From: TPA_inf: Saccharomyces
Taxonomy: Eukaryota
Reading direction: 5' to 3'
Assembly (NCBI GenBank): GCA_000146045.2
Contig: BK006939.2
Location: 448,001-512,000 of the forward strand
Length of the DNA: 64,000 nt
Position numbers and translations under genes: made by a program. Shown in pieces: positions 1 through 50,421 of this stretch (positions within the stretch are counted from its first letter, which is position 1; every line of letters starts with the position of its first letter). The notes beneath the pieces are model-generated. The model was not told the origin of the DNA and did not search any database. It saw only the letters and a program-made list of their open reading frames with translations.

Positions 1-1024
1 CTAAGAACAGTTCAGCGACTGTCATATTTAGATGTCGATGACGTGTGTAGCGTAAAAATTTATATTCGCCAGATAGACCTCTCATAATTAATTGGCATGC
101 GACCTTGTTATTGATATGAATGCCATTATTGTTCAGTCTGTCGATAATGTTTGTGACTTTTGTTTCAAATGCATCTGCAGGTGTACTGCCATTATATTGC
201 AAATTTGCCAGGGTCACAATGTCGTTTGCCTCTTGGGTATCAGATTGCATTTTTTCAATACTTTTGGAAAGAATTTTCATGATATCCGTATAATCAACGG
301 ATAGGATGTCTTTGACCCAGGTAGGTAGGAATTGAGAGGGAGCAAATATTTGAAAAGTGTTATACAAGAAGGTGAGTTCATCATCAGTGATCTGACGTAC
401 GGGTTTTCCGTTTACTGTCGGAATAATACCACCGAGATTCGAGTTTTGTAAAAATTTGATGTATGTTTTAACCCAATTTGGAAAGTCATTAGGTGAGGTT
501 AACATTGGTGGTGGTCTGACATATTTTTTAGTGGATGTCATATCAGAGTCCGCTGAGGATGAATCAGTAAATGTATTACCTGACTCAGGTGATGGAGTGC
601 TCAGAGGCGTTCCAACTGATGATGGATACTGCGGAAACTGTGATTGTGGCCCAGGTGGAAAGTACATAGGCGACATTTGATAAGGTGTATACGGAATCAT
701 AGATGGGTGTCCGTAAAATGACCAACCAGATGGATTGGCTTGGTTTTGGGTCATCATGCACTGCTGTGGGTACGGCCCATTCTGTGGAGGTGGTACTGAA
801 GCAGGTTGAGGAGAGGCATGATGGGGGTTCTCTGGAACAGCTGATGAAGCAGGTGTTGTTGTCTGTTGAGAGTTAGCCTTAGTGGAAGCCTTCTCACATT
901 CTTCTGTTTTGGAAGCTGAAACGTCTAACGGATCTTGATTTGTGTGGACTTCCTTAGAAGTAACCGAAGCACAGGCGCTACCATGAGAAATGGGTGAATG
1001 TTGAGATAATTGTTGGGATTCCAT
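1..1024 (-). CDS. TYA: Ty1 TYA (Gag), N-terminal portion. The ORF runs off the window start.
   Basis: ATG at 1024 on the minus strand, starting MESQQLS. The translation matches the 440-aa TYA ORF of copy 2 (48802..50124). The start lies 39 nt inside the LTR, as in Ty1. Confidence 0.85.
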
Positions 1025-1320
1025 TGTTGATAAAGGCTATAATATTAGGTATACAGAATATACTAGAAGTTCTCCTCGAGGATATAGGAATCCTCAAAAT
1101 GGAATCTATATTTCTACATACTAATATTACGATTATTCCTCATTCCGTTTTATATGTTTATATTCATTGATCCTATTACATTATCAATCCTTGCGTTTCA
1201 GCTTCCACTAATTTAGATGACTATTTCTCATCATTTGCGTCATCTTCTAACACCGTATATGATAATATACTAGTAATGTAAATACTAGTTAGTAGATGAT
1301 AGTTGATTTCTATTCCAACA
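985..1320 (-). repeat. Ty1 5' LTR (delta), 336 bp, belonging to copy 1.
   Basis: It has the TGAGAAATGGGTGAATGTTGAGATAATTGTTGGGATTCCATTG ... TATTCCAACA termini. It aligns with 50085..50421. Confidence 0.85.
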
Positions 1321-1630
1321 CATCTACTAACTAGTATTTACGTTACTAGTATATTATCATATACGGTGTTAGAAGATGACGCAAATGATGAGAAATAGTC
1401 ATCTAAATTAGTGGAAGCTGAAACGCAAGGATTGATAATGTAATAGGATCAATGAATATTAACATATAAAACGATGATAATAATATTTATAGAATTGTGT
1501 AGAATTGCAGATTCCCTTTTATGGATTCCTAAATCCTCGAGGAGAACTTCTAGTATATCTACATACCTAATATTATAACCTTAATCACAATGGAATCCCA
1601 ACAATTACATCAAAATCCACATTCTCTACA
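1321..1630 (+). repeat. Solo delta LTR of Ty1/Ty2 type, 5'-truncated by about 22 nt. It is inverted relative to the neighbouring Ty1 LTR and carries the first codons of a gag ORF.
   Basis: Its sequence, CATCTACTAACTAGTATTTACGTTACTAG ... ATGGAATCCCAACAATTACATCAAAATCCACATTCTCTACA, is almost identical to the solo delta at 39834..40165. Confidence 0.8.
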
Positions 1631-1744
1631 AATGAAGAAACTGCTTATAGTCAATTGAACGATTTACCGGTATTTTAACGCCATTATATATATTAGTAAA
1701 AAGATGGCGTATATTGATGGACTAACAGGGTCAAATAAAATCAT

Positions 1745-2005
1745 GAATTGACTAGTATATACTTATAAGTATATCGTTCTACACAAACTAGGAAGATGAC
1801 ATACATGATGAGAATTGGTTATCAAATTCCATGGATGCCGAAACGTAAAAGATTTACTAAATAGTAGGATAATTATTGATAACATACAAAACAAAAAAAA
1901 AAGAGACAATATTATTATCTAGAAGTGTCGACTTCCTTCTGTGGGTTTCCTATGTTCTCGAAGAGAGCTTCAAGTGTATTCTATAAACTAAGAATATTAG
2001 TTTAA
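1745..2005 (+). repeat. Degenerate delta-like LTR relic.
   Basis: About 70% similarity to the delta consensus, including GAAGATGAC..ATGATGAGAA..GGAAGC..GAAACG and TCCT..TCTCGAAGAGAGCTTCAAGTGTATTCTATAAACTAAGAATATTAG. Confidence 0.45.
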
Positions 2006-2562
2006 CGAAAGATCGAAGTCAGACACCTATCTAACTTTCATTAAATTATCACACAAAAATCCCACATACTCTCGTCTTGCTAAACAAATAATAAATTGAA
2101 GGTGAACGATTCTTCTTGCAGCGTCCTAGCTGTTGGGTCGTCTTAGATAAATATCTACTGTTCTGAATTGCCAAATTTTCCTTCTATTGTATCCATTCGA
2201 TGCTGGACGGCCAGTTCTACCGTTATTGCCCAAAAGGAAGGAACGTCGCGATACTTCAACACATTAAATACTTGTTGATTTTCGAACCAAAACTCTGAAG
2301 CAACACTTTCGTATATGGATGGCCCTTCAGAGAAACCAATAGGTATGTAAAGAATTGCTACGTGGTGACTCAAAGTGAATTATAGCAAAGTTATAAAAGC
2401 GCTACATTGTAGAAAATTGAGAACCACATTTTGACATACACGAATAACAGTATTTTTGTCCTGGCGCTGTAAAGTATTTTAAGTTATGATGATGAATTAA
2501 CTATTTTCAGCCAATGAAACGTCCATAATCTGTTCTGAATTTAGGTGCATTGATATAGCCGG

Positions 2563-3243
2563 TCAATCTTCCCTTGTGAAATCACCCAAAATGCTGGGAT
2601 TATCATTCTCAACAATTTTGATTTGTGCCAACCACTTCGATAAATCATCTTCCAGCTCAGTATCATCTTTTTCTGTAGTCCCACTGTCAGGATTTAATCC
2701 TAACTTTTTGAGACCGGATATCAATGATTTAATGTCTTCTTCGGATGCCTTTTCTCTTAGCAACTCTTCAAACAAAGTCACTTTGAAATCTATATCGTGT
2801 TTGTCCTGTTCAGGATCTTCAAATAGGTGAACCCCTGTTCTTGCAAATAAAGCTTCATCAGATAGTTGCACTTGATAAAATTGGGAACATCTAAAATGGA
2901 ACTTACTGCAATAGTGCGACAAATATGCATACGGATTGTTTTCTAATAAAAATTTCTTAGTAGTATCATTCATTGAAAATGGATCACGTATTCTTTCTGG
3001 CGATTTACCGCAAAGAGGATATCCGCATCTTTTGTTTAGATTCCTCTCATCTACTAGGTCTTGATACATATCCGGTGTGAGAAATCGGCCCAAATATTTC
3101 AATGTTTTCTCATCCTTGCATTCTGAATCACATAATAAGCCTATAATCTCTAAAGTTATAACTTCTGCTTCATGCATGGAAAGTTGCCTGTGCTTTTGGA
3201 AAGGGATTAACGCCGTTTCCTTAATATCTTCAATCGTCGCCAT
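2563..3243 (-). CDS. RTR1: RNA polymerase II CTD phosphatase Rtr1 (RPAP2 family, zinc finger), 226 aa.
   Basis: A 226-aa ORF starting MATIEDIKETALIPFQKHRQ with a CGYPLCGK...C zinc-finger motif. Its length and position next to EMP65 match YER139C. Confidence 0.85.
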   Translation of the reverse strand: MATIEDIKETALIPFQKHRQLSMHEAEVITLEIIGLLCDSECKDEKTLKYLGRFLTPDMYQDLVDERNLNKRCGYPLCGKSPERIRDPFSMNDTTKKFLLENNPYAYLSHYCSKFHFRCSQFYQVQLSDEALFARTGVHLFEDPEQDKHDIDFKVTLFEELLREKASEEDIKSLISGLKKLGLNPDSGTTEKDDTELEDDLSKWLAQIKIVENDNPSILGDFTRED

Positions 3244-7145: not shown

Positions 7146-8036
7146 TTAGGATTTCACGAAATTTTCTTCTGCCTTCATCATGGCATCTGTATTTGTGCTC
7201 GCGAGCCTCCAAAGTATGAACATAAACACAGACCTATACGGAGAAAATGTTTCAGAGCATTTTTCCATTATGTCGTCGTCATATATTTTCCAGTTGTATT
7301 TCTTATGCTTAATCTTACTCTTTTTAACTACTTTTCTTTCACGCATTAATTCTTTTTCCAATTCTGGCTTATCTGAAAGGTATTTTGAAAAACCCCTAGC
7401 AATACCTAGATCTTCAGGAGCAAATACATCCATTCTTTTCAATCCGGAGATCAAGAACATTTTGGCACTCCATGGGCCTATACCTTTTACATTCGTAACT
7501 AAACTTTCAATCACTTCCTCATCATTATCTTTTTGACCGAAGAGCTTTTCGATATCCTTATATTTTTCAGTAAAATAGACAGCAAGAGACTCTAGATATA
7601 TCATTTTCCTTTTACTCAATCCACATTTTGCGATTTCTGCACATTTTGCTGGGTCTTTGAAGTCTTCGAAAAGGATTTTGTAATCAGGAAATGCACCGCC
7701 ATAAAGACTGACAACCCTTGCCTTGATGCTTTCAGCTGCTTGGCCACTGATCTGTTGAGACAAAATTGTGCTTGCAAGCCTAATAAAATAATCTTCGAGT
7801 GTATTAGGGACTTGAGTCTCCTTCAAGTACAACGTAAATTCATTATTCTTAAGTATGGGAAAAAGTGATGGATCTTTCTCTAAAATGTGTTCGCAAGCCA
7901 TATTGAACTTTTCTTCATGTCTAGCAATATATTTCTCAGGAAGAGCAACCTCTAGAGGTCGAGACCCTAATTCTTTTGCTATTTCCTTAACAGCGTCTGC
8001 TTTTATTAACTCATCATACTCCCTTTTTAGTTTCAT
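7146..8036 (-). CDS. MAG1: 3-methyladenine DNA glycosylase Mag1, 296 aa.
   Basis: The ORF reads MVSMKLKREYDEL... The Met at 8036 (MKLKREYDELIK) gives 296 aa. It has a helix-hairpin-helix glycosylase fold signature and is transcribed divergently from DDI1. Confidence 0.88.
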   Translation of the reverse strand: MKLKREYDELIKADAVKEIAKELGSRPLEVALPEKYIARHEEKFNMACEHILEKDPSLFPILKNNEFTLYLKETQVPNTLEDYFIRLASTILSQQISGQAAESIKARVVSLYGGAFPDYKILFEDFKDPAKCAEIAKCGLSKRKMIYLESLAVYFTEKYKDIEKLFGQKDNDEEVIESLVTNVKGIGPWSAKMFLISGLKRMDVFAPEDLGIARGFSKYLSDKPELEKELMRERKVVKKSKIKHKKYNWKIYDDDIMEKCSETFSPYRSVFMFILWRLASTNTDAMMKAEENFVKS

Positions 8037-8177
8037 TGAGACCAATCCCTCTCTAGCTTCTCTTGATTCTCAGTAAAAAATTAAAAAGGAAAAGTACCAC
8101 TTCCATCGTCATATCAGAGGGCAGTGGCCAATTCTCATTGATTCATAGATAACTTAAACTTTATGTAAGAATTCCCG

Positions 8178-20816: not shown

Positions 20817-21350
20817 TCGAATAGTCTTTAACTAGAGACTTATTTTAAACAGGACATGTGTTTTTTACTAATATTGTATTCTTCGATGTAGTCGTTATAG
20901 TTCTTTTTCTTCAAATCATTTAAATAAAGAAACTATTTTTTCTTTTTGTGTGTAGAATAATAAATGTAATTCTAGTTCTTCCTTTTTTTTTTTGGCTTTT
21001 TCACAGCTCATCTTTTTTACCCATTTGGTCATGATTATGTTGTTTGCCGTTGTGCAATAGGGAGTTTGTAAATCCTGAGATAAAGTATGGTGCTTCGAGG
21101 TTAGCACTTAATTGGCGTAAGCTGCTTAATGACAAAACCCTCCTTGGGCTTGGCGTATACGAAATATGCTCCTGCGAAGCGCAGTGGCAATATTGAGCAC
21201 TATGTTAACGATAACGTGTTGGACTCATCGTCTGTGCACATATGATTGAAATCGGGAATCCTCTGCTTTTTTTAGGTAAAATCAAACTTTGGCTAAATTT
21301 GGATGATTACTTAAAGTAAGAAATGAATCTTAAGAGATGTATGAGTTTTG

Positions 21351-21412
21351 TGATAATTGTTGTGATTCCATTGTTGCCAAAGGCCATAATATTTTGAAAT
21401 TCACATTCCTTC
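21351..21412 (-). repeat. Short delta (Ty1 LTR U5-end) remnant just upstream of tRNA-Val.
   Basis: TGAGTTTTGTGATAATTGTTGTGATTCCATTGTTGCCAAAGGCCATAATATT aligns to the LTR end TGAGAAATGGGTGAATGTTGAGATAATTGTTGGGATTCCATTGTTGATAAAGGCTATAATATT. Confidence 0.55.
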
Positions 21413-21426
21413 TACAAGGTATTTGT

Positions 21427-21500
21427 TTCTTAAATGTTCATCTCCAAGAAATAATTGGTTTCGTGGTCTAGTCGGTTATGGCATCTGCTTAACACGCAGA
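21427..21500 (+). tRNA. tV(AAC): tRNA-Val (anticodon AAC), 74 nt, no intron.
   Basis: GGTTTCGTGGTCTAGTCGGTTATGGCATCTGCTTAACACGCAGAACGTCCCCAGTTCGATCCTGGGCGAAATCA gives a cloverleaf with A box, B box GGTTCGATCC and anticodon loop CTTAACACG. A T6 terminator follows immediately. Confidence 0.95.
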
Positions 21501-21506
21501 ACGTCC
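21501..21506 (+). terminator. RNA polymerase III terminator (T6) of tRNA-Val.
   Basis: TTTTTT lies directly 3' of the tRNA. Confidence 0.8.
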
Positions 21507-21611
21507 CCAGTTCGATCCTGGGCGAAATCATTTTTTAAATATGCCAAGCATAAAGTGTAACTCTGTTTCTCTGTCTGTCTCTATTTCTTTTTTAAAATCG
21601 TGCTCACTATC

Positions 21612-39833: not shown

Positions 39834-40165
39834 TGTTGGAATAAAAATCAACTATCATCTACTAACTAGTATTTACGTTACTAGTATATTATCATATACG
39901 GTGTTAGAAGATGACGCAAATGATGAGAAATAGTCATCTAAATTAGTGGAAGCTGAAACGCAAGGATTGATAATGTAATAGGATCAATGAATATTAACAT
40001 ATAAAACGATGATAATAATATTTATAGAATTGTGTAGAATTGCAGATTCCCTTTTATGGATTCCTAAATCCTAGAGGAGAACTTCTAGTATATCTACATA
40101 CCTAATATTATAGCCTTAATCACAATGGAATCCCAACAATTACATCAAAATCCACATTCTCTACA
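39834..40165 (+). repeat. Solo delta LTR (Ty1/Ty2 type), complete, about 430 bp upstream of tRNA-Glu.
   Basis: It begins TGTTGGAATAAAAATCAACTATCATCTACTAACTAG and ends ATGGAATCCCAACAATTACATCAAAATCCACATTCTCTACA. It is about 99% identical to 1321..1630. Confidence 0.9.
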
Positions 40166-44351: not shown

Positions 44352-44424
44352 CTTCCCCGCCAGGACTTGAACCTGGAATCTTCTGGTTCGTAGCCAGACG
44401 CCGTGACCATTGGGCCACGAGGAA
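44352..44424 (-). tRNA. tR(ACG): tRNA-Arg (anticodon ACG), 73 nt.
   Basis: The reverse complement is TTCCTCGTGGCCCAATGGTCACGGCGTCTGGCTACGAACCAGAAGATTCCAGGTTCAAGTCCTGGCGGGGAAG, with anticodon loop CTACGAA and B box GGTTCAAGTCC. The sigma LTR ends about 14 nt upstream of its 5' end. Confidence 0.93.
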
Positions 44425-44438
44425 TAGGATGTTCAGTG

Positions 44439-44695
44439 TGTTGTATTACGGGCTCGAGTAATACCGGAGTGTCTTGACAATCCTAATATAAACAGTCTTA
44501 GGGAAGTAACCAGTTGTCAAAACAGTTTATCAGATTAATTCACGGAATGTTACTTATCTTATATATTATATAAAATATGAATCATACTAAGTGGTGGAAG
44601 CGCGGAATCTCGGATCTAAACTAATTGTTCAGGCATTTATACTTTTGGGTAGTTCAGCTAGGGAAGGACGGGTTTTGTCTCATGTTGTTCGTTTT
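44439..44695 (-). repeat. Ty3 sigma LTR, 3' portion (about 257 bp), next to tRNA-Arg. It is interrupted by the Ty1 insertion.
   Basis: The reverse complement matches the sigma consensus: AAAACGAACAACATGAGACAAAACCCGTCCTTCCCTAGCTGAACTACCC ... CGAGCCCGTAATACAACA. Confidence 0.85.
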
Positions 44696-44831
44696 TCAAT
44701 CCTTGCGTTTCAGCTTCCTCTAACATCGATGACAGCTTCTCATAACTTATGTCATCATCTTAACACCGTATATGATAATATATTGATAATATAACTATTA
44801 GTTGATAGACGATAGTGGATTTTTATTCCAA
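44696..44831 (-). repeat. Ty1 3' LTR, truncated. Only about 136 bp of the U3-proximal part remain.
   Basis: It aligns to 50286..50421 of the 5' LTR and ends TATTCCAACA. The R-U5 part (TGAGA...) is absent, and the sigma sequence abuts directly. Confidence 0.7.
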
Positions 44832-44855
44832 CATACCACCCATAATGTAATAGAT

Positions 44856-47800
44856 CTAATGAATCCATTTGTTTGTTAATAGTTTGAATGTTTTTATCGG
44901 AAGAGGTTTGGTCATTACGTCTGCAATATTCTTTTTGGTTTCGATATAGCATACGTGCAGATGATTTCCTGATACTTCATCTCTTAGTCTCATTGCTTTA
45001 GTACCAAAAAATCTGTTTCTAAATTTCTCTTCATTATTGGATATAATTATACTGATTGTAGATTTACTGTCGGTTAGTAATCCTTTAGTAATTGGTTTCT
45101 TGTTAAGTTCTTGCACAAGGTGACTGAGGTTATTTAATAATGGGACAGATTCACTTATCGCGTGTATTTCTGCTTCCGTAGTTGAAGTACATGTTAATGA
45201 AGCCTTGGTGGACTTTCCTCCAATTACTTTTCCATTAAGTAAATATATGTTGCCAATTTGTGATTTATAATACGGTTGGTTACCATACGATGCATCGCTT
45301 ATAACAACTAATTTATTTGTTGGCTTAACAGGTTTGCTTTTGTGCCATATTAATTGCTTATCTCTCGTATTCCATATGAACTGTATCAATTCATATGTCA
45401 TATCTAACACTTGCTTGGACGGAAATAGTATATGTTGTGCAAGTGTGTTGATGTAGTATAATAGGTCAAATCTAAATTTATATCCAACATATGATGCTAG
45501 ACCTATCAGCTTTTGCATTTCATGTACCTTCATTTTGTAATCATCTTCTTCTAGCTCTAGTTCTTGCTGGTCTATATATAGACCTGGTTGACCTGGAGCG
45601 CTAAGTTTCCTTCCTTTTGGGTTCAAAGGTACGTTTAGTTTGGGTATTTTTTCAGTTAATGAGTTTTCCATACCTAATTTCATGTATTTACCTCTTTGAT
45701 ATTTGATTTCTAAGCCAAGTATGTCGTACTGAATTTCGTTATCACTTTCACCCAGATTTATTATCTTTGTATCGTATTGTTTCTTGAGTGTTGTTATGAT
45801 TTTCTTATTTGCATTTAAGTCTTTGCTGAACAATATCATATCATCAACGAATAAGCAAATTGTTACTTGACTATTCTTAAATACGCATGACCATCCACGA
45901 ACTTCTTCCATACCACACTGTTTTATCAGGTATGATTTGATAGTTTCGTACCAGTTCGCTCCACTTTGTTTCAATCCATAAAGTGATTTCTTCAAACGTA
46001 TTAACTTATCATTCATTCCTAAATGTGGTGGAGGTCTTATGTATAGTTCTTCTTTGATGTCTGCATACAAATATGCCGAAGATATGTCTAATTGTGTAAT
46101 ATAGTAGTTATTGTCTAATGCAAGTGACAGGGATGTCATTAATGCATAGTGATGTACGGTATTGGATTGCATGCCTGGGTCGTAAGTGTCAGGATGTTGA
46201 ATATCACCTCTTGCAACAAATCTAGCTTTATGAGTACCGTCACGTTTCCTGTTAAAGATAAACATTGAATTTATTACTCTTTTGGGGTCTATTTCTTTTC
46301 TGTCATAATATCTGTCAGTGTCCCAAGTTTTCATCTTCAACAGTTGATTGACTTCTTTGTGGTATGCCTGGATATATTTTTCTTTTTCTTTAATATCTTT
46401 ATTATAGGTGATTGCCTCATCGTATCGTAAGGTTGTTCGTATTGGTTTGATTGATTTTACTGCTTTTACAGCTGCAATCAGGTGAATTCGTTTCTTCGAT
46501 CTCGGAGGTTCTAAACTACGCATATTCTTAGTATTCCATGTGTCTCGTGATACCTTAATTTCAGTTTCATTATCTTCTAATGATCTTTTCTTACTGTTGA
46601 TAGTAGTATAGGCATTAGAGTCACCAATACCACCCAAACTGGAATTAGTTTGATGAGAATTTATCGGTGGGAGTTCTTTAAAGGAGTCTGATAATTCGGT
46701 AGGAGGTTCTGGAGGCAGATCGGGGAGTGGAAGATCAGCGATAATAGATTCCTCTGTATTCTCCTTAGGACAGGTATCTGACGTTTTGATAGGAACGACG
46801 TGGTGTAGTGAATTACTTTCTGATGAGGAAGTATCGATCGAAGGTGAACGGTGTATGATCCTTTTCTCAGTCTCCTGTTCGCTTGTCTGCGGAACAGTTT
46901 TATTATTGGTACCACCCGTACTGGATATTGGTACGTTTGTATGATTAGTCTCATTGTCACTGTACGAGTCTGAGTGTCTGAAATCTTTAGATTTACTGGC
47001 GTGCGACGACTCATGTGTGTTAGATTGGGACATGGGAGCAAGTAAAGGAACATCTAATCTATGCATACCACCCGAACCGGTACTCTCGATATCGGAAATT
47101 TGGGGGGTGCTAGATCTCTTCTTAGATGGAAGAATATTAGATTCAGATATGTTGGGGTCAACTTCTCTGGGTGCGCGAATATTGGTTTTGGAAACACGTT
47201 TCGAATCTTCAGTATGAGTTGACGGAGGTGTGGAATCGGTTGGACTCACAGCTTTTGAAAGGACATTTCTCAGTTGCTCAGGATGTAGTTCAATGTCAGA
47301 TTGGAAGTCATGGTCAGATTCTATGTTAAGATCATTGGATTGTTGGATCTCATTTGACGCAATGAACGAATGATATGAAGCAGTTAAACGGTTTAAGTCT
47401 TCATCGAAAGTGAGTGCGTCGTAATTGAATTGATCTAATCTGGATTCCTTGCCCTGAAGAATAACATAGTTAGTTGTATCTACTGTCTTCTTTAAGGACG
47501 GAAGATAGATGATATATCCATAAGAGTTTCGAGACGGATGTAGAGCGTAGCCTGGGATGCCACGAGGATGTATTTTGGAGTTAGGGTTGTGATCATTGAC
47601 GATAACAGGTTGACCGAAAGGTAACAAAGTACTGATATCAAGTCCTGCCAAGCCAGCATGTTGTCTTGCAGATTTTTTGCTTTTAGGTGAAGCTAGTGAA
47701 TTTCTCACAATAGTAGAAAATTCGATTGCAGAGAACCATAAATGGTTCGGTAAACCACTACATTGCAGTTGAGTACGGCAGTCATCTAATAAGGTACGGT

Positions 47801-48822
47801 TGAGCCGTTCAGCGACTCCATGTGCTCGGGAATCCGCTGTGGTTGTATAGCATGGAGTTATACCATTTTTTTCAAGGAATTTATGGAGAGTTCTGTTAGT
47901 ATACTCAGAACCACGGTCCATTTGTATAACCAAGACACTGGCCTGAAACTGGTTTTTAATAAAAGCTAGTATCGTAGTAAAAACATCGAGGATAGAGTCC
48001 TCGCGACGGTCGTGTAATGGATAAACCCAACGGAATTTTGTTGTCTCATCAGTAAATGAGATGAAATAGGATGGTGCACTTTTTGGTAGGTTGTGAACTG
48101 GACCAAATATGTCAGTATGTAGGTATTGAAAGGGTTCGTATGAATTTTGGTATTTTAGTCGTGAACCTTTGATATGTCTGTGTTTGGTGCTTTTGCCGAT
48201 TAAACAATCAGGACATTGATAGTCAATAGCACTAGACCAGTCGACATCTGATTCGTTAAAATACGTGATGGTGTTATTTTTAAGTGAGTATCGAATTGTC
48301 TGTGCATTGGCATGTGCAAGCATTCGATGAATGAAAGGATAAGGATATTTGCGTGTACTTTCACTTGTATGGACATTATTGATGGTGGGTACGGAGATAT
48401 TTGATGGAAGCAAGTACTTTTTAGATACCCAGTAAAAGTCTCCATATTTTACGATAGGTGCAAGTACAGTGCCGTCAGACCGTTCTAAGACGTTTTTGGT
48501 AAAGCATGCTGTGATATCTACTGCAGCCAATTCATTCAAACTGAGTAAGTCATAGGCTATGTTAGGAGTGTGCAATACCTTTATTGATGTTTTGGTGTTG
48601 TCCTGGAAGTGAAATTGTAGGTCACCAATAGCGTTAATTGGTATATTTCTTTTTTGAGCATCAACTACGTTTATGTCAGGATTAGATGATGCTGAGTGTA
48701 TGTGATGAGCAGATCTTATAAGGGTTCGTGATGCTCCTGAATCGAGAAGGAGGTGTCCAGGGAGTTCATCATCAGAATGATTAGTATGATTTACTGTAGA
48801 TTCAGTAAGTTTCTGGCCTAAG
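44856..48822 (-). CDS. TYB: Ty1 TYB (Pol: protease, integrase, reverse transcriptase/RNase H), expressed as a TYA-TYB fusion by +1 ribosomal frameshift.
   Basis: The long ORF is in the +1 frame relative to TYA. It contains integrase zinc-finger and DDE motifs, an RT YXDD motif (FVDDM) and an RNase H region. The ORF-track Met-start fragment is 44856..48575. I set the upstream boundary at the frameshift site. Confidence 0.85.
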
Positions 48823-50124
48823 ATGAAGGTCGTGCTTATTGTTCAATTGAATCGGTTCAGTAGTTGATTTACTGATGGAATCGTTGTCCGTGCTGGGAGA
48901 GTTATTAGATGTGGATACATTGTGAGCCCTGGCTGTTTTCGATTTCGAATTATTTGTTTTTTGAGGATTCCGAGCTATAACTTTGGGTTTGGTTGTATTC
49001 GTATAGCTGCGAGAATCATTCTTCTCATCACTCGGATTTCTCCTGTAATTAGGTTTGCTGTTTCTCGATCCCTGTTGTTCTTCATAAATAGCATGGATAT
49101 CTAAGAACAGTTCAGCGACTGTCATATTTAGATGTCGATGACGTGTGTAGCGTAAAAATTTATATTCGCCAGATAGACCTCTCATAATTAATTGGCATGC
49201 GACCTTGTTATTGATATGAATGCCATTATTGTTCAGTCTGTCGATAATGTTTGTGACTTTTGTTTCAAATGCATCTGCAGGTGTACTGCCATTATATTGC
49301 AAATTTGCCAGGGTCACAATGTCGTTTGCCTCTTGGGTATCAGATTGCATTTTTTCAATACTTTTGGAAAGAATTTTCATGATATCCGTATAATCAACGG
49401 ATAGGATGTCTTTGACCCAGGTAGGTAGGAATTGAGAGGGAGCAAATATTTGAAAAGTGTTATACAAGAAGGTGAGTTCATCATCAGTGATCTGACGTAC
49501 GGGTTTTCCGTTTACTGTCGGAATAATACCACCGAGATTCGAGTTTTGTAAAAATTTGATGTATGTTTTAACCCAATTTGGAAAATCATTAGGTGAGGTT
49601 AACATTGGTGGTGGTCTGACATATTTTTTAGTGGATGTCATATCAGAGTCCGCTGAGGATGAATCAGTAAATGTATTACCTGACTCAGGTGATGGAGTGC
49701 TCAGAGGCGTTCCAACTGATGATGGATACTGCGGAAACTGTGATTGTGGCCCAGGTGGAAAGTACATAGGCGACATTTGATAAGGTGTATACGGAATCAT
49801 AGATGGGTGTCCGTAAAATGACCAACCAGATGGATTGGCTTGGTTTTGGGTCATCATGCACTGCTGTGGGTACGGCCCATTCTGTGGAGGTGGTACTGAA
49901 GCAGGTTGAGGAGAGGCATGATGGGGGTTCTCTGGAACAGCTGATGAAGCAGGTGTTGTTGTCTGTTGAGAGTTAGCCTTAGTGGAAGCCTTATCATATT
50001 CTTGAATTTTGGAAGCTGAAACGTCTAACGGATCTTGATTTGTGTGGACTTCCTTAGAAGTAACCGAAGCACAGGCGCTACCATGAGATATATGTGGGTA
50101 ATTAGATAATTGTTGGGATTCCAT
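48802..50124 (-). CDS. TYA: Ty1 TYA (Gag), 440 aa.
   Basis: A 440-aa ORF starting [26 protein letters not shown]. It ends just past the frameshift heptamer. Confidence 0.93.
48816..48822 (-). other. Ty1 +1 programmed frameshift heptamer CUU-AGG-C.
   Basis: GCCTAAG on the plus strand is CTTAGGC on the minus strand. It sits in the 38-nt TYA/TYB overlap, immediately upstream of the TYA stop. Confidence 0.85.
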
Positions 50125-50421
50125 TGTTGATAAAGGCTATAATATTAGGTATACAGAATATACTAGAAGTTCTCCTCGAGGATATAGGAATCCTCAAAAT
50201 GGGATCTATATTTCTACATACTAATATTACGATTATTCCTCATTCCGTTTTATATGTTTATATTCATTGATCCTATTACATTATCAATCCTTGCGTTTCA
50301 GCTTCCTCTAACATCGATGACAGCTTCTCATAACTTATGTCATCATCTTAACACCGTATATGATAATATATTGATAATATAACTATTAGTTGATAGACGA
50401 TAGTGGATTTTTATTCCAACA
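50085..50421 (-). repeat. Ty1 5' LTR of copy 2 (337 bp).
   Basis: It runs TGAGATATATGTGGGTAATTAGATAATTGTTGGGATTCCATTG ... TATTCCAACA. Confidence 0.9.

Follow-up and report, generated by a model that had tools for sequence, protein, structure and literature searches.

A head-to-head LTR quasi-palindrome upstream of tRNA-Ile(AAU) on the right arm of yeast chromosome V, most probably formed by a two-step nested Ty insertion

Near the left edge of a 64,000-nt stretch of Saccharomyces DNA (the window; contig BK006939.2, positions 448,001 to 512,000), the 5' long terminal repeat (LTR) of a Ty1 element lies directly against an inverted solo LTR (delta) whose beginning is missing, and this arrangement raises the question of how the two elements came to be joined and whether the inverted repeat that they form is active in chromosome breakage. 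A sequence-only reading had seen in the shortened delta a sign of a past recombination or insertion event and had pointed out that long inverted repeats of this kind can stimulate double-strand breaks and rearrangement in yeast.

The window derives from the right arm of S. cerevisiae chromosome V. From left to right, an RTR1-family ORF (2563-3243, minus strand) is followed by ORFs for a DUF747 protein, COX15, MAG1-like and DDI1-like proteins, a UBP, FTR1 and a 240-aa TBP, and then by a 2167-aa ORF, the second Ty element of the window and a 1468-aa ORF. The TBP matches yeast TBP at 100% identity and the Pfam content of the neighbouring genes agrees in strain assemblies, so that ORF order, TBP identity and Pfam content together assign the chromosome arm. 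Published sacCer2 coordinates for chromosome V fit the window at a constant offset (449317 corresponds to 1321), and the Ty1 at the left edge is therefore YERCTy1-1.

Positions 1-983 (minus strand) hold the internal part of YERCTy1-1, cut by the window edge and comprising the 5' leader and the N-terminal Gag (TYA) reading frame; this sequence is 98-99% identical to Ty1 internal sequence in other strains. The complete 5' LTR follows at 984-1320 (minus strand, 337 nt, TGTTGG...TCTCA) and constitutes the quasi-palindrome's left arm. Ty1 uses tRNAiMet as its primer, and the primer-binding site TGGTAGCGCC (minus strand, the reverse complement of 974-983, complementary to the tRNAiMet 3' end) lies directly inside this LTR. 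Its position sets the LTR start at 984, one nucleotide before the 985 first proposed; the proposed end at 1320 was correct. As the LTR has TG...CA ends, adjoins the tRNAiMet primer-binding site and contains the Gag ATG (1024-1022), all the hallmarks of a Ty1 5' end are present. About 1.3 kb of YERCTy1-1 falls within the window and its second LTR is known from the published annotation, where the element occupies sacCer2 chrV 443393-449316 on the minus strand (5924 bp with both LTRs) and the 5' LTR is the GFF piece 448980-449316(-), labelled '1-nested_LTR' (Carr et al., 2012; PMC3511429). At the U5 end of the 5' LTR, 996-1009 (GAATGTTGAGATAA) differs by 3 nt from the same element's 3' LTR (GAATAATTAGATAA, published S288C sequence), a mismatch that is unexpected for a very recent insertion, though gene conversion or a mixed RNA template could account for it.

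Facing this LTR, the delta at 1321-1630 (plus strand) forms the right arm. It is the larger piece of a Ty2-type solo LTR, 310 nt long and corresponding to LTR nt 23-332; starting at nt 23 it is without TGTTGGAATAGAAATCAACTAT, and it abuts the Ty1 LTR with no unique DNA between them. It was named YERWdelta20B by Chan & Kolodner (2011) and is the element chrV_st71+_TY2 of Carr et al. (2012; PMC3511429), at sacCer2 449317-449626(+). A 34-aa ORF (1474-1578, plus strand) is contained wholly within it and is presumably the SGD dubious ORF YER138W-A; the sole place returned for an identical 34-aa ORF was in GCA_000149365.1, within a delta of a different chromosome.

A repeat finder returned an inverted repeat with arms at 1146-1298 (LTR nt 23-175) and 1321-1473, each of 153 nt and 99% complementary across a spacer of 22 nt, and extended it outwards to 994 and 1620 through three collinear segments of 80, 30 and 34 nt (83-88% complementary). 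By gapped alignment of the Ty1 5' LTR with the delta, the inner part is identical at 151 of 153 positions (98.7%, the mismatches being at LTR nt 44 and 162), the outer part is 81.5% identical, and overall identity is 89.3% across 317 aligned columns, with indels. The near-identical inner arms are thus shorter than the roughly 170 bp first estimated, and the outer arms (about 81%) are more alike than the estimated 70%. The spacer itself (1299-1320, minus strand) is LTR nt 1-22; its would-be pairing partner belongs to a delta stub that lies outside the window, beyond where the Ty1 ends. When 984-1630 is folded as single-stranded DNA, it adopts one long hairpin of -262.9 kcal/mol, compared with -49.4 ± 4.5 kcal/mol for shuffled sequences (z = -48); its stability is far above chance. 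Repeat finder, alignment and fold therefore agree on the inverted homology of a minus-strand LTR and a plus-strand delta, and the initial description also held for the orientation and identity of both LTRs, for the 22-nt offset of the delta and spacer, and for the contrast of Ty1-type and Ty2-type sequence, the delta being classed as TY2 by Carr et al.

The missing end of the delta is found on the other side of the Ty1. In the S288C reference, the far side of YERCTy1-1 reads ...AATGA, TGTTGGAATAAAAATCAACTATCATCT, TGAGAAATGGG..., and the LTR joined across the element reads ...ACTATCATCTCATCTACTAAC... (Carr et al., 2012, File S7; PMC3511429). In full order the junction is ...TTTTTATTAATGA TGTTGGAATAAAAATCAACTAT CATCT TGAGAAATGGGTGAAT..., on which the S288C reference and the resequenced SGRP S288c row of the same file agree. 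The order AATGA, TGTTGGAATAAAAATCAACTAT, CATCT, TGAGAAATGGG had been predicted beforehand and was matched exactly by this published sequence, which is the basis for the far-side junction, the 19 strain assemblies described below including no S288C-like one. The 5-bp duplication CATCT accordingly flanks the inner Ty1 on both sides: the right-hand copy is 1321-1325 (plus strand), and the left-hand copy ends the 27-nt stub beside the 3' LTR, outside the window. The annotation of Carr et al. assigns one element ID to both the 310-bp piece and a piece of 27 bp (443366-443392), with YERCTy1-1 between them and flagged as nested (PMC3511429). The two pieces of the host LTR amount to 27 + 310 = 337 nt, that is, to the 332 nt of an intact LTR plus 5.

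Other strains provided additional support for this interpretation. To recover alleles of the locus, assemblies were fetched through the exact RTR1-family and DUF747 proteins, and pieces of the window were mapped onto 19 distinct assemblies. One of the 19 (locus L016, GCA_947370665.1) carries an intact 332-nt delta at the same site (7735-8066) and lacks the Ty1. Its first 22 nt (TGTTGGAATAAAAATCAACTAT) are kept, its remaining part (7757-8066) is 100% identical to window 1321-1630 across the shared 310 nt, and AATGA is present on both flanks, 94 bp upstream of tRNA-Ile(AAU). Another locus, L018, has the empty site, TTATTAATGAAGAAACTG. Since the solo LTR has its own target duplication in L016 and an empty-site allele in L018, the delta is a genuine older insertion; in the window, the right-hand AATGA of this duplication is at 1631-1635 (plus strand). 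L016 represents the state that preceded the arrival of the Ty1. In most strains both the Ty1 and the delta are absent, and the 109-nt unique stretch 1631-1739 continues towards tRNA-Ile(AAU). The comparison across strains that the sequence-only reading had proposed thus yielded the intact-delta and empty-site alleles, whereas the nested arrangement of S288C was present in none of the 19 assemblies. When metagenome contigs were searched for TCAACTATCATCTTGAGA, the junction expected on the far side, 35 matches were obtained, all of them chance 18-mers in unrelated sequence, the pattern being too short. Both the solo LTR and YERCTy1-1 have been reported as polymorphic, in 2 of 13 strains (Carr et al., 2012; PMC3511429).

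The surroundings are a landing zone for Ty elements. The delta starts 94 bp from tRNA-Ile(AAU), and the Ty1 inserted upstream of this gene at a distance of about 116 bp. Ty1 is targeted to regions upstream of Pol III genes, and in the 19 assemblies at least nine other independent Ty1, Ty2 or solo-LTR insertion sites are found 90-505 bp upstream of this tRNA gene, in a stretch of roughly 450 bp (loci L002, L005/L014, L008, L010, L013, L015, L017 and L019-L021; window region 1631-2060). Clean 5-bp duplications accompany several of these sites (within the unique stretch, at 27-31, 44-48 and 86-90, among others), and the target at 86-90 has been hit in both orientations in different strains. With so many insertions upstream of tRNA-Ile(AAU), insertion into earlier LTRs is to be expected. 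An old, degenerate delta at 1740-2060 (plus strand, about 69% identical to the Ty1 LTR) is present in all strains examined and corresponds to chrV_st72+_TY1, listed as 'Fixed' by Carr et al. (2012; PMC3511429). At L004 (18593-19207), a delta without its first ~51 nt stands head-to-head with a Ty1 5' LTR, and at L015 a distance of 64 nt separates a Ty1 LTR from a solo LTR in inverted orientation; this kind of arrangement thus recurs elsewhere, and the structure is an ordinary one.

Taken together, these results point to a two-step nested retrotransposon insertion in a Ty landing zone upstream of tRNA-Ile(AAU) on chromosome V, an origin to which we assign a probability of about 95%. In the first step, a Ty with a Ty2-type LTR would have integrated upstream of the tRNA gene, at a distance of about 90 bp, duplicating AATGA, and would then have shrunk to a solo LTR. 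Solo LTRs form by recombination between the two LTRs of an element, and we infer this route for the first element. In the second step, YERCTy1-1 would have integrated in inverted orientation into nt 23-27 of the solo LTR, duplicating CATCT and splitting the host into the 310-nt piece now seen at 1321-1630 and a 27-nt stub that lies beyond the window edge, 5.9 kb leftwards. The quasi-palindrome is head-to-head because both elements carry related LTRs in opposite orientation, and since the Ty1 inserted at nt 23-27, the 22-nt spacer is simply the offset of the insertion from the start of the old LTR. The same should apply to other nested insertions of this kind, in which the palindrome spacer equals the insertion offset. 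The drop from near-identity over 153 nt to about 81% reflects the mosaic Ty1/Ty2 make-up of the LTRs.

Further repeats in the window bear on this mosaic make-up and on the homology available at the locus. The YERCTy1-1 LTR matches the Ty2-type delta at nt 23-175 and then diverges (984-1320 compared with 1321-1630), and the 5' LTR of the second Ty, YERCTy1-2 (50090-50421), differs from the YERCTy1-1 LTR in its first ~110 nt and then matches it; such mosaics are consistent with recombinant Ty1/Ty2 LTRs. YERCTy1-2 occupies 44693-50421 on the minus strand and makes with YERCTy1-1 (1-1320) a pair of minus-strand direct repeats about 49 kb apart. Its 3' LTR is only ~140 nt long and abuts a Ty3 sigma (region 44438-44833) that lies 13 nt from tRNA-Arg(ACG) (44352-44424); this LTR is short by ~195 nt although the sigma is whole. 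Published annotation has YERCTy1-2 nested in a sigma split into 257 and 89 bp, with an LTR piece of 138 bp (Carr et al., 2012; PMC3511429). The delta at 39834-40165, which is the YERWdelta22 described beside a cut site at 488 kb by Hoang et al., is identical to 1321-1630 at 308 of 310 positions, 38.5 kb away, in direct repeat and with unrelated flanks. The two appear to be recent insertions of one Ty2-type LTR lineage, and both are polymorphic (Carr et al., 2012; PMC3511429). Lastly, a 61-nt delta U5 fragment (21333-21393, minus strand, 84% identical) about 60 nt upstream of tRNA-Val(AAC) (21456-21531) is a fixed solo fragment in the same annotation.

With an origin for the structure in hand, the question of its activity can be addressed. 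The nesting is already annotated (Carr et al., 2012) and the locus has already been used experimentally, so that both are known. YERWdelta20B has served as a recombination target (Chan & Kolodner, 2011), of 27 duplications of the chromosome V right arm in a gross chromosomal rearrangement (GCR) assay, 18 were attributed to the linked YERWdelta17/YERWdelta21/YERCTy1-1 region (Chan & Kolodner, 2012), and the Crick-oriented Ty1 beside the Watson-oriented YERWdelta20b has been noted by Yadav et al. (2014). Deletions of ~43 kb between YERCTy1-1 and YERCTy1-2 have been reported after UV treatment and in histone-humanised yeast, as has one spontaneous translocation with its breakpoint at YERCTy1-1.

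These events, together with the very stable predicted fold-back, raise the possibility that the quasi-palindrome is an active structure-dependent fragile site, at which a hairpin or cruciform is extruded and cut and so initiates the rearrangements at the locus. The repeat at 984-1630 has self-pairing arms of ~100 bp or more, inverted repeats with arms of at least 100 bp and a short spacer belong to a class known to break in yeast, and hotspots of spontaneous recombination occur in nature at inverted Ty pairs spaced 25-100 bp apart. However, the initiating break in the GCR assays is on the left arm, the YERCTy1-1 locus being the homology target and not the broken site, and further events at this locus are deletions between direct Ty1 repeats; the literature naming YERCTy1-1 yielded no description of this site as fragile, but only its use as a homology target and deletions between direct repeats. 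The geometry is also unfavourable, as the repeat is near-perfect over only 153 nt, with indels and 89% identity along the arm as a whole; for Alu inverted repeats, the GCR rate falls ~15-fold at 94% and ~58-fold at 86% identity (Lobachev laboratory; PMC3855049, PMC8053094, PMC10164571). The 22-nt spacer, moreover, sits poorly with published limits on spacer length and is not of the very short kind that characterizes fragile inverted repeats: fork arrest and attack by MRX/Sae2 need a spacer of 8 bp or less, detectable fork arrest being abolished beyond 8-12 bp; fragility is strong at a 12-bp spacer and its stimulation is cut ~300-fold when the spacer goes from 12 to 100 bp; and cruciforms are inhibited by spacers of more than 20 nt. 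Even HS4, with 6-kb arms, reaches only ~5 times the average. These published rules of spacer length and arm divergence predict that structure-driven fragility here would be weak at most. We therefore regard an active fragile site that initiates the rearrangements as unlikely, and still somewhat less likely that structure-driven breakage would be measurable in wild-type cells; it is just as doubtful that the quasi-palindrome serves as a break site specific to the S288C lineage, for instance under replication stress or RPA limitation.

The reported rearrangements act via homology, and homology alone explains them. The best explanation of the repeat is that it is a passive by-product of the nested insertion with no selected function, which supplies LTR homology in both orientations for use in ectopic recombination. 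In S288C-derived strains, such homology beside a full Ty1 helps to explain the frequent role of the locus in Ty-mediated translocations and in the resolution of dicentrics on chromosome V. Were breakage at the palindrome nevertheless shown, the locus would be a convenient model, natural and polymorphic among strains, for imperfect inverted repeats with short arms.

A different account of the junction itself holds that the delta lost its first 22 nt by deletion, recombination or imprecise repair where it meets the Ty1. Within the window alone this reading has in its favour that the delta begins at nt 23 and meets the Ty1 LTR with no unique DNA in between, but the missing 22 nt and a perfect CATCT duplication are found beyond the Ty1, the two pieces together make one LTR and 5 bp more, and an intact, otherwise identical delta occupies the same site in L016. 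As a deletion would yield neither stub nor duplication, this origin is refuted by the stub and the target-site duplication, and we consider it highly improbable. Of the event first proposed for the junction, insertion thus stands, on the evidence of the duplication, the stub and L016, and truncation or fusion by loss or recombination does not: the stub and CATCT beyond the Ty1 and the intact copy in L016 mean that the delta is split, not truncated. The seemingly truncated LTR joined to the Ty1 has instead been split, and its other piece is hidden by the window edge. More improbable still is an assembly or sequencing artefact by mis-joining of repeated LTR copies, to which a junction wholly within repeated, mis-assembly-prone sequence might seem open, as the resequenced SGRP S288c row has the same far-side junction as the reference and the integrase arithmetic is exact (27 + 310 = 332 + 5), and we reject it.

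The nested insertion can finally be set beside known systems. The insertion of chrV_i5-_TY1 in chrV_st71+_TY2 described by Carr, Bensasson & Bergman (2012; PMC3511429) is the same object, 27 bp and 310 bp flanking a minus-strand Ty1 and labelled '1-nested'; the structure is identical, and the resulting inverted repeat and its spacer were left undiscussed there. Published work on YERWdelta20B (including that of 2014, PMC4256205) likewise concerns the same telomere-oriented 310-bp delta beside the centromere-oriented YERCTy1-1, as a target of homologous recombination and break-induced replication (BIR) in gross chromosomal rearrangements, and regards the locus as a mixed-orientation Ty cluster that offers a homology target, not as a palindrome.

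Akin to the present locus, FS2 on chromosome III and HS3 and HS4 on chromosome IV (YDRWTy2-2/YDRCTy1-2 and YDRWTy2-3/YDRCTy1-3) are natural recombination or fragile sites made up of closely spaced inverted Ty-family repeats that arose from insertions near tRNA genes, and the HS4 spacer of 25-66 bp is of the same order as the 22 nt found here (PMC3616911, PMC6267110). Their arms, however, are whole elements of 6 kb, and tests by deletion and spacer expansion established them as hotspots, whereas the arm described here is a single LTR, near-perfect over only 153 nt. The engineered Alu quasi-palindromes of the Lobachev laboratory (PMC3855049, PMC8053094, PMC10164571), with 320-bp arms, a 12-bp spacer and 100% or 94% identity, supply the quantitative rules by which the risk was judged above and resemble the present repeat in having a short spacer and arms close to the ~310 nt of the present repeat; they differ from it in that the spacer is here 22 nt and the identity 89% with indels, two changes that each sharply lower breakage in the Alu assays.
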